The notes beneath the pieces were generated by a model. The model did no database searches. It saw nothing but the letters and a program-made list of their open reading frames with translations, and was not told where the DNA came from. A DNA stretch of 64,000 nucleotides, from positions 19,186 to 83,185 of the forward strand of contig JBNGDI010000002.1 in NCBI GenBank assembly GCA_049975425.1, given 5' to 3'. Below, piece after piece: positions 11,193 to 19,462 of this stretch. The stretch's first letter is position 1; each line of letters starts with the position of its first letter. The position numbers were made by a program, and so were the translations under genes. Source of the DNA: Bacteroidales bacterium. GTDB lineage: Bacteria; Bacteroidota; Bacteroidia; Bacteroidales; VadinHA17.

Positions 11193-11820
11193 GTCGGGTT
11201 GAATTTTCCGATTGGTCAAGATTCTTTTCAATGATCGACGTCAGTATATCAATAGCAACCTTGTTCTCCCCTCCCTGCGGCACAATAATGTCGGCATATC
11301 TTTTGGTCGGCTCGATAAACTGCAGGTGCATGGGTTTCACTGTTTTTTCATACCTTTCCAGCACCTGCCCCACATGCCGGCCCCGTTCTTCCAGGTCACG
11401 ATGGATCACCCGGCCCAGACGGTCGTCAGCATCGGCATCTACATATACTTTAATATCAATCATATCCCTGAGGGGAGGATGGGTGAGGATGAGGATCCCT
11501 TCCAGGATAATTACCTGCTGGGGTTCAACTGTCACTGTTTCAGACAACCGGGTGCATGTAAGGTAGGAATACACGGGCTGCTCAATGGCTTTCCCCATCT
11601 TCAGTTTTTTAATATGTTCCACCAGAAGTGAAAATTCTACGGAATCGGGATGATCGAAATTGATTTCCTGTCTTTTCCCGGGAGGGATATGTGAATTGTC
11701 TCGATAATACGAATCCTGCGGAATGACGGCTACAGATCTTCCCGACAGATTCTCGACAATTTTTTTCACCACGGTGGTCTTTCCCGAGCCGGTTCCTCCG
11801 GCAATGCCAACAATCAGCAT
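11185..11820 (-). CDS. udk: uridine kinase
   Basis: GIAGGTGSGKTT, DSYY, NFDHP, EGIL, HLQFIEP; real start MLIVG at 11820. Confidence 0.95.
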   Translation of the reverse strand: MLIVGIAGGTGSGKTTVVKKIVENLSGRSVAVIPQDSYYRDNSHIPPGKRQEINFDHPDSVEFSLLVEHIKKLKMGKAIEQPVYSYLTCTRLSETVTVEPQQVIILEGILILTHPPLRDMIDIKVYVDADADDRLGRVIHRDLEERGRHVGQVLERYEKTVKPMHLQFIEPTKRYADIIVPQGGENKVAIDILTSIIEKNLDQSENSTRHA

Positions 11821-13295: not shown

Positions 13296-13397
13296 TGGAC
13301 TGATCCAGTGACGGCATCAACCTGTCTGCATCCAGCTTTCGGTTTCAGACAGGATTCTGAAATTATTTCAATCCATTACCCCAAAATTCTTACAATA

Positions 13398-13988
13398 ATG
13401 ATCACAAAAGTCAAAAAACAAAATATCATTGCCCGGGGCAGGAAATCCAGGGGCATTGTTATCGGGAACCGTATTCCCATGGATTATTTTGAAACCAGCG
13501 GCATCGGGCAGAGCGACATCACGGTACATGCCGGCTCATACCACCTGGCTCTGAAAGACGCCGGCATTGAGCAGTATAACATTATGACCTATTCCTCCAT
13601 ACTTCCGGGTATTGCCAGGAAGGTGGAAAAACCCGAAAAAATTGAGCACGGTTCCGTGGTGGAATCCATCATGGCGGTATGTACCAGCCAAAAAGGAGAA
13701 CGTGCCACGGCCGGCATCATTTACGGCTGGCTTTACGACAAATCCACCGGAAGCAAATTCGGAGGTCTGGTGTGTGAAAATTACGGAAATGAAACGGAAG
13801 AAGAGATCTCTCTGAAACTCCGTGCCAGTCTTGATGAATTGTATTACAACGGGTTTTCAGAAAAATACCTTCTCAAAGACATTCATACCATTACCCGAAG
13901 TTTTATTCCCGAAAAAACCCACGGGACAGCGCTGGTAGCCCTCTGTTTCACCAGCTATTATTATCCAATTATTGAAGGCGCGGCGTAA
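13398..13988 (+). CDS. pdaD: pyruvoyl-dependent arginine decarboxylase
   Basis: SYHLALKDAGIEQYNIMTYSSILP containing the Ser-Ser self-cleavage site; GLVCE; adjacent to agmatinase. Confidence 0.85.
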   Translation: MITKVKKQNIIARGRKSRGIVIGNRIPMDYFETSGIGQSDITVHAGSYHLALKDAGIEQYNIMTYSSILPGIARKVEKPEKIEHGSVVESIMAVCTSQKGERATAGIIYGWLYDKSTGSKFGGLVCENYGNETEEEISLKLRASLDELYYNGFSEKYLLKDIHTITRSFIPEKTHGTALVALCFTSYYYPIIEGAA

Positions 13989-14869
13989 TGAGCTTCATTT
14001 ACGGAGGTTTACCCGATTCTTATTCCCGGCCCGATTCCAGCAGAATCGTCATCCTTCCTGTGCCCTATGACGATACCAGCACCTGGATCAAAGGGGCTGA
14101 CAGGGGCCCTGACGCCATTTTGGAAGCATCGGCCAACATGGAACTGTACGATATTGATACCGATAGTGAAGTGTACCGGCTGGGCATTCATACGGCCCCG
14201 CCGCCCGGAGGGTTTCCTTCTCCTGAAGAAATGGTGAAAGAGGTTGAGAAATCTGTTGAATATTACATCCGGAAAGGAAAATTTGTTGTCACCCTGGGTG
14301 GGGAACATTCCATCAGTATCGGCTCCATCTTCGCACACGCAAAAGCACACGGGAACCTGACCGTTCTGCAAATCGATGCTCACGCCGATCTCCGGCAGGA
14401 ATACATGGGCAGCCGCTTCAATCATGCCTGTGTCATGGCACGTGCCCGCGAAGTGGCACACTGTGTGCAGGTTGGTATCAGAAGCATGGATGTCACTGAA
14501 AAGGAATTTGCCGAAAAATCTGATCTGTTTTTTGCAAGTGAAATCCATAAATTCCAGAAATGGCAGCAAAAAGTTATTGGAAGACTTCGGCAAAATGTTT
14601 ATATTACTTTCGATCTGGATGCACTGGACCCGTCAATCATGCCCAGTACAGGAACTCCCGAACCCGGCGGCCTGGGATGGTATGAGGTGCTGGATCTGAT
14701 AGGCATGGTGATTGAACAGAAAAACCTGGTGGGAATGGATGTAGTGGAATTATGCCCCAATCCCGCCAACCGGGCGCCTGATTTTCTGGCGGCCAAACTG
14801 ATCTACCAGACACTCTCCATGCGTTTTGCAGGAGAACTGTCACGGTTGAATAAAAACAATCCGTCATGA
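13988..14869 (+). CDS. speB: agmatinase (ureohydrolase)
   Basis: GGEHS, DAHAD, HAC, GIRS, DLDALDPS, GTPEPGG; TAATG coupling to pdaD. Confidence 0.92.
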   Translation: MSFIYGGLPDSYSRPDSSRIVILPVPYDDTSTWIKGADRGPDAILEASANMELYDIDTDSEVYRLGIHTAPPPGGFPSPEEMVKEVEKSVEYYIRKGKFVVTLGGEHSISIGSIFAHAKAHGNLTVLQIDAHADLRQEYMGSRFNHACVMARAREVAHCVQVGIRSMDVTEKEFAEKSDLFFASEIHKFQKWQQKVIGRLRQNVYITFDLDALDPSIMPSTGTPEPGGLGWYEVLDLIGMVIEQKNLVGMDVVELCPNPANRAPDFLAAKLIYQTLSMRFAGELSRLNKNNPS

Positions 14870-15885
14870 GTAAAAAGGAATTATTGAAAAACACAGTAGA
14901 ACACATCGACATAACCTCCTTTGATGCAAGGCCCATTATTGATGCCATGAGGAAAATGTCGTTTTCATCACGTGCCACGGCTCATGCCACCGATATTCTC
15001 AGCCGTATGATCAGGGATAAAAAATGTACCAGCATTCTGACCCTGGCCGGCAGCACCAGCGCAGGAGGCTGCATGCAGGTGTACGTGGATATGATCAAGA
15101 ACAATATGATTGATGTGGTCGTCGCCACCGGAGCTTCCATTGTGGATATGGATTTCTTTGAAGCACTGGGATTCAGGCACTACCAGGGAAGTATCCATGT
15201 CAATGACAGGCAGCTGAGAAATCTGTATATTGACAGGATTTACGATACATATATTGACGAAGACGAGTTGCAGGTATGTGACAATACCATCAAAGAAATT
15301 GCCGACAGCCTGGAACCGCGTCCTTACTCCTCACGCGAATTTATCCGCGAAATGGGTAAATACCTTGCAAAAAACAGCGTGAAAAAAAATTCTCTTGTGC
15401 AAACAGCCTACGAACAGGATGTTCCCGTTTTTTGTCCGGCATTCAGCGACAGCAGTGCAGGGTTCGGGCTGGTTATGCACCAGTGGGAAAATCCATCCCG
15501 GCATCTGTCCATCGACTCGGTAAAAGATTTTCTTGAGCTAACCCGCATCAAGATTGCTGCTGAAACAACCGGTCTGTTCATGATCGGCGGGGGTGTTCCG
15601 AAAAATTTTGCCCAGGATACGGTGGTCTGTGCAGAAATGCTTGGGAAACCGGCGCCCATGCATAAATATGCCGTTCAGATCACAGTGGCCGATGTACGCG
15701 ACGGAGCCTGTTCTTCTTCCACCCTGAAGGAAGCCTCTTCATGGGGCAAGGTAGACACCGTTTATGAGCAGATGGTTTATGCCGAAGCCACCACGGTTCT
15801 TCCTCTTATGGCCAGCTATCTCTATCATCAGGGAAACTGGCGTAAACGGCCGGTGCACCGTTGGAACAAACTTTTCGAACAATAA
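14866..15885 (+). CDS. deoxyhypusine synthase-like protein (probable homospermidine synthase, SpeY-like)
   Basis: DRIYD, PAFSDSS, GGGVPKNF, DGACSSSTLKEASSWGK with the catalytic Lys; ATGA overlap with speB. Confidence 0.88.
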   Translation: MSKKELLKNTVEHIDITSFDARPIIDAMRKMSFSSRATAHATDILSRMIRDKKCTSILTLAGSTSAGGCMQVYVDMIKNNMIDVVVATGASIVDMDFFEALGFRHYQGSIHVNDRQLRNLYIDRIYDTYIDEDELQVCDNTIKEIADSLEPRPYSSREFIREMGKYLAKNSVKKNSLVQTAYEQDVPVFCPAFSDSSAGFGLVMHQWENPSRHLSIDSVKDFLELTRIKIAAETTGLFMIGGGVPKNFAQDTVVCAEMLGKPAPMHKYAVQITVADVRDGACSSSTLKEASSWGKVDTVYEQMVYAEATTVLPLMASYLYHQGNWRKRPVHRWNKLFEQ

Positions 15886-15901
15886 GTTATTACATCATGT
15901 C

Positions 15902-16051
15902 ATGAAAGGGAAAAAGGAGTTCAAGAAACGCAGAAAGAATTTTGACACTTCGGAAGATCTCTATTCAAAAAAGAAACCCGGGAAAAAACACGACCAGAAA
16001 CAGGGCAAAAAGTTTTCCATTTACGATACATGGGATGAAGAAGAGGAGTAA
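15902..16051 (+). CDS. small Lys-rich protein with acidic tail (49 aa), not listed at this start in the ORF track
   Basis: MKGKKEFKKRRKNFDTSEDLYSKKKPGKKHDQKQGKKFSIYDTWDEEEE; fills the gap 16 nt after dhs and 8 nt before engB. Confidence 0.65.
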   Translation: MKGKKEFKKRRKNFDTSEDLYSKKKPGKKHDQKQGKKFSIYDTWDEEEE

Positions 16052-16059
16052 TAAATCCC

Positions 16060-16680
16060 ATGACAAAGGAAATGATCATACATTCAATCAGGTTTACAGG
16101 AAGCAGTGCAGATCTGGCCCATCTGCCGTCGCCCGATAAACCTGAATATGCCTTCACGGGGCGATCGAATGTGGGAAAATCCTCCCTTATCAATATGCTG
16201 ACAGGAAGGAAAAACCTGGCCAGGATCTCTTCAACCCCCGGAAAGACACGGATCATCAACCACTACCTGGTCAATGAACAATGGTATCTTGTTGATCTGC
16301 CCGGCTATGGATACGCAAAAGCCTCAAAAACAAACAGAACCGAATGGAACCTGCTGCTGAAGCAGTACCTGCTGAAACGACCCAATCTGCTTTCGGTATT
16401 CGTGCTGATCGATTCCCGCATCCCCCCTCAGAAGATTGACCTGGATTTTCTGGAATTTTTGGGAACGAATCAAATACCTTTCTGCCTTGTGTTCACCAAG
16501 ACCGATAAGTTAAGCTCCAAAAAACTCAAAACCGCCATTCAGGAATACAAGAAAGGACTGCTTCTGGTGTGGGAAACCCTCCCGCCCTGGTTTGTCACTT
16601 CCTCGGTCACTCGTGCCGGAAGGGAAGAAATACTGGGATTTATTGATGAAACCAACCGGTTTGATCATCAAAATGTATGA
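16060..16680 (+). CDS. engB: ribosome biogenesis GTPase YihA/EngB
   Basis: GRSNVGKSS, TPGKT, DLPGYG, TKTDK. Confidence 0.96.
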   Translation: MTKEMIIHSIRFTGSSADLAHLPSPDKPEYAFTGRSNVGKSSLINMLTGRKNLARISSTPGKTRIINHYLVNEQWYLVDLPGYGYAKASKTNRTEWNLLLKQYLLKRPNLLSVFVLIDSRIPPQKIDLDFLEFLGTNQIPFCLVFTKTDKLSSKKLKTAIQEYKKGLLLVWETLPPWFVTSSVTRAGREEILGFIDETNRFDHQNV

Positions 16681-16767
16681 ATTTACCCGCACCGGCAGCG
16701 TTTTTTCTTTTCAGTTTTACTAATTTTACAGTCAGAATGATCATTCGGTAAATGTAATAACCCCTGT

Positions 16768-17706
16768 ATGCCAGCGAAATCCAGTATTAAATTCTTTTCC
16801 GGAAGAAGCTCCCGTTATCTGGCTGAAAAAATAGCCAAAAGTTTTGGTTCTGAGCTGGGCAAAACTTCCATTCTTGAATTCAGCGACGGAGAATTTCAGC
16901 CCTCCTATGAAGAATCGGTACGCGGTGCCACCGTTTTCATTATCCAGTCTACCTTCATGCCGGCCGAAAATCTATTTGAACTCCTGCTAATGATTGATGC
17001 CGCCAAAAGAGCCTCCGCCTACAAAATTGTTGCAGTGATGCCTTATTTCGGATTCGCCCGGCAGGATCGCAAGGATAAGCCCAGGGTCTCTATCGGGGCC
17101 AAGCTTGTGGCTAACCTGCTATCTGCAGCAGGAGCCGACCGGGTCATGACCATGGACCTGCATGCTGATCAGATTCAGGGTTTTTTCGATTTCCCTGTTG
17201 ACCACATCTACGCTTCCACCGTATTTGTCCCTTATTTCAAAAGCCTTGATCTTGATAATCTGGTTATTGCCTCCCCGGATATGGGCGGAAGCAAAAGGGC
17301 CAACGCCTATTCCCGTTTCCTGAATGCCGAAATGGTCATTTGCTATAAGCAACGTGAAAAAGCCAATGCTGTGGGTAAAATGGTGGTCATTGGCGATGTA
17401 ACCGGGAAAAATGTGGTCATAGTGGATGACATGATCGACACGGCCGGGACCATCACAATGGCAGCCAATATGATGAAGGAACAGGGTGCCCTCAGCATAC
17501 ATTGCGCTGCCACACATCCTGTTCTTTCAGGTCCGGCCTACGAAAGGATAGAAGAATCGGCCCTGGAAGAAGTGGTGGTTACCGATTCCATTCCCCTTAC
17601 CCGGGAAAGCCCGAAAATCAAGGTGTTATCAATTGCCGATATTTTTGCCGATGTAATCAACAAGGTATACAATTATCAATCGATCAGTTCCACATTTATT
17701 GTATAA
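16768..17706 (+). CDS. prs: ribose-phosphate pyrophosphokinase
   Basis: FSDGE, ARQDRK, DLHADQIQGFF, VDDMIDTAGT. Confidence 0.97.
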   Translation: MPAKSSIKFFSGRSSRYLAEKIAKSFGSELGKTSILEFSDGEFQPSYEESVRGATVFIIQSTFMPAENLFELLLMIDAAKRASAYKIVAVMPYFGFARQDRKDKPRVSIGAKLVANLLSAAGADRVMTMDLHADQIQGFFDFPVDHIYASTVFVPYFKSLDLDNLVIASPDMGGSKRANAYSRFLNAEMVICYKQREKANAVGKMVVIGDVTGKNVVIVDDMIDTAGTITMAANMMKEQGALSIHCAATHPVLSGPAYERIEESALEEVVVTDSIPLTRESPKIKVLSIADIFADVINKVYNYQSISSTFIV

Positions 17707-17711
17707 TTCAC

Positions 17712-17719
17712 TATATTTG
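17712..17719 (+). promoter_or_regulatory. sigma-A -7 box for rplY-pth-hslR
   Basis: TATATTTG(CA). Confidence 0.7.
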
Positions 17720-17748
17720 CACCCTCTTTAAAACAATCAATTATTAAC

Positions 17749-17793
17749 GTGTGATGGGAAGCTGGAAACTCATATTCCGGCTTCAGGTAGCAC
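17749..17793 (+). promoter_or_regulatory. candidate L25 ribosomal leader (5S loop-E-like internal loop)
   Basis: GUGU-[GAUGG]-10 bp stem-7 nt loop-[AGGUA]-GCAC, 15 nt before the rplY ATG. Confidence 0.55.
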
Positions 17794-17808
17794 ATAAAGG
17801 AATTCACT

Positions 17809-18468
17809 ATGAAAGAGGTAGAAATTAAGGGTAAACTACGACAGCAAACCGGAAAAAAAGATGCAGCACGACTGAGAAAACAGGGGTTTGTGCCCTGTGT
17901 TATGTACGGAGGAAAAGAAAATATTCATTTCTGTGCTCCCACAGGAGATTTTAAAAAAATCATTTATTCCTCTCATATCTACCTGGTTAATCTTGATCTG
18001 GAGGGAAACCATTATCAGGGTCTGATCAAAGATATACAGTTTCATCCGGTTACCGACGAGATCCTTCATATCGATTTTATCGAAGCTCTCCCCGGGAAGG
18101 ATGTCATTGTCAACACCCCCATTCACCTGGTGGGTGATTCGGTCGGGATCAAAGCCGGCGGAAAACTTCGCCAGAGAAGAAGGTACCTGAAGGTGAAGGG
18201 TAAGGCCGAAAAAATGCCCGAATACCTGGAAATTGATATTACCGACCTGGATGTGGGTAAGAAAATCAAGGTTGGGGATCTTTCCTTTGAGGACCTCGAA
18301 TTGCTTGATACTCCGCGCGCCCTGGTGGTTCAGGTCATTTCTTCCCGACTGGCTGCCAAAGGCATGATTATTACTGAAGAAGCCGGGGAAGCACCTGCTG
18401 AAGAAGAGTCTGTTGCAGCTGAAGAAGCCGCAACTGAAGAAACCGGAGAGGAATCAACAGAAGCGTAA
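17809..18468 (+). CDS. rplY: 50S ribosomal protein L25/Ctc
   Basis: GK..ARLRKQGFVPCVMYG, IQFHPV, HIDF; acidic tail. Confidence 0.95.
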   Translation: MKEVEIKGKLRQQTGKKDAARLRKQGFVPCVMYGGKENIHFCAPTGDFKKIIYSSHIYLVNLDLEGNHYQGLIKDIQFHPVTDEILHIDFIEALPGKDVIVNTPIHLVGDSVGIKAGGKLRQRRRYLKVKGKAEKMPEYLEIDITDLDVGKKIKVGDLSFEDLELLDTPRALVVQVISSRLAAKGMIITEEAGEAPAEEESVAAEEAATEETGEESTEA

Positions 18469-18483
18469 ACCAAATCTGCTGGA

Positions 18484-19083
18484 TTGAAGTATCTGATAAC
18501 CGGACTCGGAAATCCCGGGCGGGAATATGAAAACACCCGCCATAACATTGGATTTTCAATATTGGACGCCCTGGTAAAAGCGTCCAATATTGCTTTTGAG
18601 GACCGCCGGTATGGATGGATTTCAAGGCTTTCTCACAGGGGAAGAATTTTTGTTCTTCTGAAACCCTCTACATATATGAATCTGAGCGGAAGTGCGGTTC
18701 ATTACTGGCTGAAGAAAGAAAAAATTCCCCTCGAACGTTTGCTGGTTGTGGTAGACGATGTGGCTCTTCCCTTCGGAGTCTTGCGACTCCGGGCTAAAGG
18801 AAGCGATGCGGGACACAACGGCCTGAACCATATCAGCACCATTCTGGGCACACAGAACTATGCGCGCCTGCGTTTCGGAATAGGAGACAATTATGGGCCG
18901 GGACAAAAAGCAGAATACGTGCTTGGTCCCTGGTCGGAAGAAGAAAAAAAACTGTTGCCCCAAAGGATCGAACTGGCAGGAGAAATCATTCTGCAGTTCG
19001 GTGTGCTGGGAGTGGAAAGAACCATGAACCTGTATAATAAGCACGGTAACAATCTGTTGCAGAAAAATGAAGGAAAAACCTGA
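18484..19083 (+). CDS. pth: peptidyl-tRNA hydrolase
   Basis: GLGNPG..Y..TRHNIG, KPSTYMNLSG, GHNGL; TTG start. Confidence 0.96.
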   Translation: MKYLITGLGNPGREYENTRHNIGFSILDALVKASNIAFEDRRYGWISRLSHRGRIFVLLKPSTYMNLSGSAVHYWLKKEKIPLERLLVVVDDVALPFGVLRLRAKGSDAGHNGLNHISTILGTQNYARLRFGIGDNYGPGQKAEYVLGPWSEEEKKLLPQRIELAGEIILQFGVLGVERTMNLYNKHGNNLLQKNEGKT

Positions 19084-19462
19084 AGAAGAAAAGGTTCGTA
19101 TTGATAAATGGCTGTGGGCCGTTAGAATATACAAAACCAGAAGTCAGGCTACCGAAGCATGCCGCAGCGGAAAAGTCTTCGTAAACAATGAACCGGCCAA
19201 ACCCGGCCGGACGATACGGCCCGGTGAGATTGTCGTGGTTAAAAAAGTGCCCGTATGGTACACCTATGAAGTAAAAGCCCTGACTGAAAAAAGGCTTCCG
19301 GCTCCCCTGGCAGCAGAACATTACCGGAACCTTACCCCCGAAGAAGAACTGAACAAATTGAATATTACCAGATTATCGGGATTCGAATACAGGGAAAAAG
19401 GCAGGGGCCGCCCCACAAAACGAGAAAGAAGAGAAATCAACCGCCTCAAGAAGCTCCCCTGA
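19067..19462 (+). CDS. hslR: ribosome-associated heat shock protein Hsp15 (S4 domain)
   Basis: RIDKWLWAVRIYKTRS, GRPTKRERR. Confidence 0.92.
   Translation: MKEKPEEEKVRIDKWLWAVRIYKTRSQATEACRSGKVFVNNEPAKPGRTIRPGEIVVVKKVPVWYTYEVKALTEKRLPAPLAAEHYRNLTPEEELNKLNITRLSGFEYREKGRGRPTKRERREINRLKKLP

Follow-up and report, generated by a model that had tools for sequence, protein, structure and literature searches.

We analysed a 64,000-nucleotide (nt) window of a Bacteroidales genome (contig JBNGDI010000002.1), in which a small open reading frame (ORF) follows three enzyme genes predicted to lead from arginine to homospermidine. The ORF encodes a charged micro-protein that belongs to a previously undescribed family tied to speY, the last of the three enzyme genes.

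A homospermidine operon with a fourth gene

The ORF lies at 15902..16051 on the + strand (ATG at 15902, TAA ending at 16051) and translates into MKGKKEFKKRRKNFDTSEDLYSKKKPGKKHDQKQGKKFSIYDTWDEEEE, a peptide of 49 amino acids (aa) that is a short-subfamily member of the speY-linked family. It starts 16 nt 3' of the stop codon of a gene resembling deoxyhypusine synthase (DHS) and ends 8 nt 5' of engB, and its product contains both SKKKPGKKH and KQGKK. An earlier note, made from the DNA of the window, had described the ORF in these very terms, and we found its coordinates, length, gaps and motifs to be correct.

The first gene of the operon, pdaD (also called pylADC; 13398..13988, + strand), encodes a pyruvoyl-dependent arginine decarboxylase (ADC) according to its match with Pfam PF01862 PvlArgDC (92.9 bits, E 2.6e-26); an in-frame GTG at 13308 provides an alternative start, and the product scores below the NCBIfam equivalog cut-offs. 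The second, a speB-like gene (13988..14869, + strand), encodes an agmatinase-family ureohydrolase (Pfam PF00491, 232.7 bits; TIGR01230 agmatinase, 226 bits vs a cut-off of 174). The third (14866..15885, + strand) is the DHS homologue, matching the equivalog model NF002699 for SpeY/CdmS, 1,9-bis(guanidino)-5-aza-nonane synthase, with 596.1 bits (cut-off 500) and Pfam PF01916 DS with 323 bits. It falls below the cut-offs of the models for true DHS (298 vs 434; 235 vs 364), and its nearest relatives in the PDB are the archaeal 'probable DHS' structures 8put and 7cmc. The retained catalytic-lysine motif that the earlier note had pointed out is indeed there: EASSWGK is present, and the lysine of SWGK (K295), which we take to be the catalytic lysine as in DHS, is invariant across 16 aligned relatives. 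Stop and start codons overlap between operon genes, the stop of speB with the start of speY. On these model matches, the DHS-like gene is assigned to SpeY, predicted to couple agmatine with itself in an NAD-dependent reaction to bis-guanidino-homospermidine (G44G), and pdaD, the speB-like gene and speY together make up what by sequence is a complete arginine-to-homospermidine operon.

In the SpeY/CdmS route as published, agmatine produced by ADC is joined in pairs by SpeY to give G44G (caldomycin), from which a ureohydrolase then sets homospermidine free (PMC10981699; PMC13625781). According to PMC13625781, G44G is formed by SpeY homologues of diverse phyla, one Bacteroidota species included, the substrate hydrolysed by the agmatinase homologues that accompany SpeY is G44G rather than agmatine, and SpeY derives from archaeal DHS. 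By its context, the speB-like product of the window is probably likewise a G44G ureohydrolase. The pylADC-speB-speY cluster has also been described (PMC13625781). Known SpeY/CdmS systems, such as pylADC-speB-speY of Caldilinea aerophila and the CdmS pathway of Thermus thermophilus, share the same three enzyme families with the window, the pyruvoyl ADC and the agmatinase homologue being adjacent, whereas the Bacteroidales operons add a fourth conserved gene, for the micro-protein, right after speY. The abstract and consulted passages of PMC13625781 make no mention of this gene. The micro-protein gene is the terminal fourth gene of the homospermidine operon, and a SpeY operon with such a previously undescribed, lineage-restricted gene is a variation on a known system.

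The reading frame of the micro-protein extends without a stop back to an ATG at 15764 (95 aa, 46 extra codons) and thereby runs through the final 120 nt of speY in the +1 frame. Comparison of the loci 3' of speY showed that this extension is not conserved as an open frame in the g6 relatives, and a frameshift fusion of the micro-protein to SpeY is therefore unlikely. The ORF also holds an A_AAA_AAG heptamer (15967-15973, + strand) in its zero frame, at codons S22-K23-K24. The -1 frame from this site would meet a TGA before engB. We considered a programmed frameshift here, as well as the fusion, and dropped both ideas; the heptamer and the upstream open frame are probably by-products of the lysine codons.

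Downstream, the engB/YsxC GTPase gene (16060..16680, + strand; TIGR03598, 212 bits) is a neighbour that lies outside the unit. It opens a string of mostly translation-related genes at 16060-19459 (+ strand), comprising engB, prs, the gene for ribosomal protein L25/TL5, the peptidyl-tRNA hydrolase gene pth, and genes for an S4-domain protein and a DUF4924 protein. In this genus, the homospermidine operon directly precedes the string, with no terminator-like site between them. Elsewhere in the window, a 139-aa ORF without a Pfam family (11212-11628, + strand) lies between exonuclease-like and mannose-6-phosphate-isomerase-like genes and overlaps a 302-aa minus-strand ORF with a P-loop-like GGTGSGKT motif.

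A small protein family linked to speY

A search of 41 relatives with the single peptide sequence gave significant matches only in the genome of the window (G000) and in G001 of the same genus; the other eight genomes matched at E >= 0.03, no better than chance. What revealed the family was inspection of the DNA 3' of speY in 10 relatives, from which a profile was then built. Five of these ten, belonging to three genera (G000, G001, G024, G007 and G020), carry a similar ORF in this position.

Linkage to speY is strict. DNA context covers 13 loci (7 genomes and 6 metagenome contigs, the latter drawn with the long-subfamily profile; 11 distinct DNA sequences), and at each of them the micro-protein ORF starts within ~30 nt of the speY stop codon. 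The order pdaD-speB-speY-ORF is found wherever the contig extends far enough, and metagenome loci L041-L045 keep pdaD-speB upstream of speY. Within the taxonomic family, the micro-protein is encoded in 7 of the 10 genomes that bear speY and in none of the 291 that do not, and no copy distant from speY turned up in 301 family or 401 order genomes. Its 3' neighbour, by comparison, varies, being engB, a Gfo/Idh/MocA oxidoreductase gene, a GH130 gene, a convergent MacB/FtsX permease gene or a convergent aldo-keto reductase gene. The gene engB lies 3' of speY only in G000, G001 and G005, and it follows a micro-protein ORF only in the genus of the window, g1. Because the downstream gene varies and engB follows only in g1, the micro-protein travels with speY and not with engB. 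The earlier note had proposed a synteny comparison, which ties the ORF to the DHS-like gene; the same comparison speaks against the alternative raised there, a basic protein of the engB unit, as the position is kept while the neighbours change.

We also considered a leader peptide for the downstream gene and ruled it out, given that the downstream genes differ and that two of them are convergent. Nor is the micro-protein a leader of engB in particular, because in G005 speY is followed by engB across an AT-rich spacer without the ORF. This spacer (L016) is ~175 nt long, strongly AT-rich and repeat-like, and may be either a loss scar or a promoter region. A further irregular locus was seen in G453, a single-contig genome of 68% completeness, where speY occurs in two pieces ~108 kb apart (L037 and L038) with runs of N by one piece. 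The split appears to be an artefact of assembly, and it is behind the 3' piece that the micro-protein gene lies.

The pattern of substitution indicates that the 49-aa ORF genuinely codes for a protein, because the pairwise ratio of non-synonymous to synonymous substitution (dN/dS) within the long subfamily is 0.08-0.47 where computable. Between long-subfamily lineages, synonymous sites are saturated (proportion of synonymous differences, pS, 0.7-0.98), and the corresponding non-synonymous proportion (pN) is 0.2-0.28. In Fisher tests, two pairs from different lineages reached p = 1.6e-8 and 3.2e-7 and a third pair 0.0017, whereas two close pairs showed no significance. The near-identical pair L024/L041 differs by one synonymous and five non-synonymous changes (dN/dS 1.10). 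Insertions and deletions between the short and the long subfamily preserve the frame. The best that Rfam offered was a frameshift-site model at the noise level of E 0.99.

The two subfamilies comprise peptides of 49-51 aa (short; the window, G001 and P0023-25) and of 58-67 aa (long), and their homology follows from a profile-profile comparison with hhalign (E 4e-5) together with their same position. Features found throughout the family are an MK.K start, a basic head with a net charge of +10 to +11, an invariant KK, a [FY]S[IL]Y[DE] hinge and an acidic tail. In the window peptide, the head (residues 1-37) has a net charge of +11 and the tail (residues 38-49) of -6; the tail of one long member reaches -15. 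AlphaFold2, run on the long-subfamily alignment, returned a low-confidence extended chain with one C-terminal helix (mean per-residue confidence, pLDDT, 68.7; predicted template-modelling score, pTM, 0.25), and the micro-protein is accordingly predicted to be intrinsically disordered.

The earlier note had read the KPGK of the window peptide, together with the adjoining DHS homologue, as the mark of a possible enzyme-substrate pair after the fashion of the hypusination loop of IF5A/EF-P, with whose familiar IF5A consensus we compared the micro-protein. KPGK was found in 0.5% of composition-matched shuffles (K[PT]GK in 1.6%) and is therefore not trivially expected. Among 29 distinct members, however, the corresponding tripeptide is PRK in 21, PVK in 3, PRQ in 2, VKK in 1 and PGK in only 2, so that homologues without PGK are common and PRK is usual. 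Another genome of the same genus already has PRK in place of PGK, additional cluster representatives carry PRK and GPK, and in the hhalign alignment the short subfamily's PGK is matched with IKD in the long subfamily. What is nearly conserved is Pro-x-Lys, with the proline in 28/29 and the lysine in 26/29 members. Unlike IF5A/EF-P, the micro-protein has no KOW/OB fold and no EFP_N or eIF-5a match; none of 22 family members matched the EFP_N/eIF-5a family even at E <= 1. Because PGK occurs in only 2 of the 29 members, the aligned peptides indicate that the resemblance to IF5A/EF-P is not a family trait and that KPGK is incidental. Of the proposed pair, the linkage to the DHS-like gene is thus upheld and the IF5A-like motif is not. 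The genome has an EF-P of its own with the canonical loop HVKPGKGGAF (L075:1501-1671, - strand, on contig C22 of G000), unlinked to the speY operon.

Distribution and repeated loss

A profile search of a set of 5.8 billion proteins retrieved 25 proteins of 49-70 aa, all of them unnamed or 'hypothetical', with Bacteroidales metagenome-assembled genomes (MAGs) as their named sources. An exhaustive HMMER search over 1.84 billion representatives returned five clusters only, including one more divergent member (P0027), and a degenerate-pattern search of genome contigs confirmed at least one locus (L039, from a MAG of the same genus). The micro-protein has no match in Pfam, NCBIfam or the PDB, and its best matches in the ESM Atlas (scores 0.86-0.88) are all clusters of hypothetical proteins. 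Among 301 genomes of the taxonomic family, the profile detects the micro-protein in seven, namely in 2/3 of g1 (including G000), 4/5 of g6 and 1/3 of g19. An even sample of the order yielded the micro-protein in 1 of 401 genomes, which was G000 itself; this sample held only three other family genomes and shows rarity outside the family, nothing more. The micro-protein thus represents a very small, lineage-restricted and previously undescribed family.

The gene to which it is linked, speY, is widespread in the phylum (142/401 sampled genomes) but scattered among order relatives (10/41) and in the taxonomic family (10/301 genomes). No micro-protein accompanies speY at 3/10 loci in the family and at 5/10 among the relatives. 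At 29/29 further speY loci of the phylum, nothing comparable lies downstream; four have a nearby ORF of at least 25 aa, none of which resembles the family.

A speY tree (a quick tree with SH-aLRT branch support only) places ORF-bearing genes on both deep branches of the order-level clade, one with g6 and a g19-like contig and the other with g1, and ORF-less lineages (G031/G026, g18 and G005/G028) are interleaved among them. Because ORF-bearing speY genes occur on both deep branches, the simplest reading of the tree would be a single origin in the ancestor of the clade followed by at least three losses. At the two g18 loci (L032 of G458 and L033 of G450), which come from GC-rich relatives, the micro-protein is absent and another gene, overlapping the end of speY, comes after pdaD-speB-speY; speY of G450 lies within an open frame of 548 aa. 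As it has been lost repeatedly and is wanting at all 29 further phylum loci, the micro-protein is dispensable for the homospermidine pathway.

Possible roles of the micro-protein

The overall best explanation, which we hold with slightly better than even confidence, is a SpeY operon with a genuine terminal micro-protein gene whose product is accessory and probably regulatory. A more specific version, which we put forward tentatively and at somewhat less than an even chance, is that the micro-protein has an accessory role which the pathway can do without, most likely as a regulator that docks to an enzyme, and not an acceptor of the IF5A type. Agmatine is decarboxylated arginine, and the disordered Lys/Arg-rich head of the micro-protein would chemically resemble the cationic substrates of the pathway (agmatine, polyamine). 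Such a head may dock at an acidic substrate entrance of SpeY, of the ureohydrolase or of ADC, and the micro-protein would then act like a bacterial 'antizyme' or a small enzyme partner encoded within the cluster.

Both comparisons have their limits. Eukaryotic antizyme is a protein of about 200 aa made by +1 frameshifting. The likeness lies in the concept of a small protein, linked to the polyamine pathway, with the potential for feedback on the biosynthetic enzymes; there is no sequence relationship, and the comparison is an analogy only. MbtH-like proteins are small enzyme partners encoded in non-ribosomal peptide synthetase clusters, folded and with a Pfam family. The micro-protein is like them in its size (~50-70 aa), its place inside a biosynthetic cluster and its patchy presence, but the predicted disorder, the high charge and the lack of annotation of its family set it apart. 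The idea of proteins that inhibit polyamine enzymes goes back a long way in bacterial research (PMC1784093).

Several observations weigh against a genuine gene with a regulatory product. The micro-protein ORF is 69% purine and 45% A, and such tracts easily hold frames open; a second frame is open over the same stretch (15942-16139). The two g1 sequences of the micro-protein show no synonymous and three non-synonymous differences, too few to test and compatible with relaxed constraint on the short form. Among the sequencing runs holding the locus (24 rows, all DNA metagenomes), none is an RNA run. The repeated loss means that the pathway has no need of the micro-protein, and the conserved Pro-x-Lys in a lysine-rich stretch, beside an enzyme of a lysine-modifying type, fits a substrate role. 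The regulatory mechanism itself is one that we infer from gene position and charge pattern alone. Complex prediction for a SpeY dimer with the micro-protein (score 0.02, mark 0.32) counts neither for nor against binding.

The purine content and the second open frame would fit the absence of any gene, the frame being open by chance within a spacer or 3' untranslated region that is rich in purines and conserved as RNA. We find this scarcely credible, since amino acids are conserved between lineages whose synonymous sites are saturated (p 1.6e-8 and 3.2e-7), the indels between subfamilies keep the frame, and Rfam holds no match. If the gene is real, it could still be an unrelated small gene hitchhiking at the 3' end of the operon, or one of the engB unit, with no tie to polyamines. 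The tiny size of the family, its repeated loss, the absence of a known domain and the mere 8 nt to engB in the window would suit such a gene; its confinement to speY in the 301 family and 401 order genomes, a position kept while the downstream neighbour changes five ways, and the AT-rich, ORF-less spacer between speY and engB in G005 make it improbable. A product that never touches the enzymes is also conceivable, in the form of a charged micro-protein that binds nucleic acids or ribosomes and, made alongside homospermidine, serves, for example, in charge buffering or in interaction with RNA, DNA or the ribosome. It would agree with a head whose net charge is +10 to +11 and a tail at -6 to -15, with the predicted disorder, with the place of the gene at the end of a polycation-synthesis operon and with the adjoining engB-prs-L25-pth genes in this genus. 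We consider it possible but doubtful, as the micro-protein matches no ribosomal or nucleoid protein family and the translation-gene neighbourhood is found in g1 only.

In the remaining alternative, SpeY would have the micro-protein as its dedicated protein substrate, and one of the conserved lysines (for example K24/K25, which is invariant, or that of P-x-K) would take a 4-guanidinobutyl group from agmatine, which the ureohydrolase could trim to a deoxyhypusine-like 4-aminobutyl-lysine. The strict adjacency to speY at 13/13 loci is in line with this, as are the invariant KK, the nearly conserved Pro-x-Lys and the fact that SpeY keeps the catalytic lysine of DHS and derives from the archaeal enzyme (PMC13625781). 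It is made less far-fetched by a published, unproven model for haloarchaea, in which DHS moves the agmatine moiety to the lysine of aIF5A and agmatinase acts afterwards, and which aIF5A-agmatinase-DHS gene clusters support (PMC5178350). Against it stand the scarcity of Gly-Lys (2/29 members), the replacement of the lysine by glutamine in two members and the absence of the proline in one, in a peptide that has neither the fold of IF5A/EF-P nor a match to that family and is predicted to be disordered. SpeY enzymes, moreover, make G44G without such a partner, and most speY loci lack the ORF; an enzyme-substrate pair is not needed to explain SpeY, because the enzyme has a known small-molecule substrate in agmatine. 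A search for fused or longer SpeY-peptide forms found none, which is weak evidence. We therefore judge a substrate role unlikely, and give a little less credit still to the full scenario, in which SpeY would have kept or regained the ancestral protein-lysine modification of DHS and the micro-protein would be guanidinobutylated and then trimmed to a deoxyhypusine-like residue. If that scenario were true, it would mark the first case in bacteria of a DHS homologue carrying out a polyamine-to-protein modification, mirroring the haloarchaeal aIF5A model (PMC5178350).

Returning to the accessory and probably regulatory gene that we prefer, its general importance is limited by the narrow distribution (three genera and metagenome relatives) and the repeated loss. 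It adds a new, unannotated family to the small proteins, a kind often overlooked or left unnamed by ordinary annotation. The SpeY route to homospermidine was elucidated only in 2024-2026, and to our knowledge no regulation or protein partners are known for it. A conserved micro-protein gene abutting speY on its 3' side offers a handle on the regulation of the SpeY pathway.

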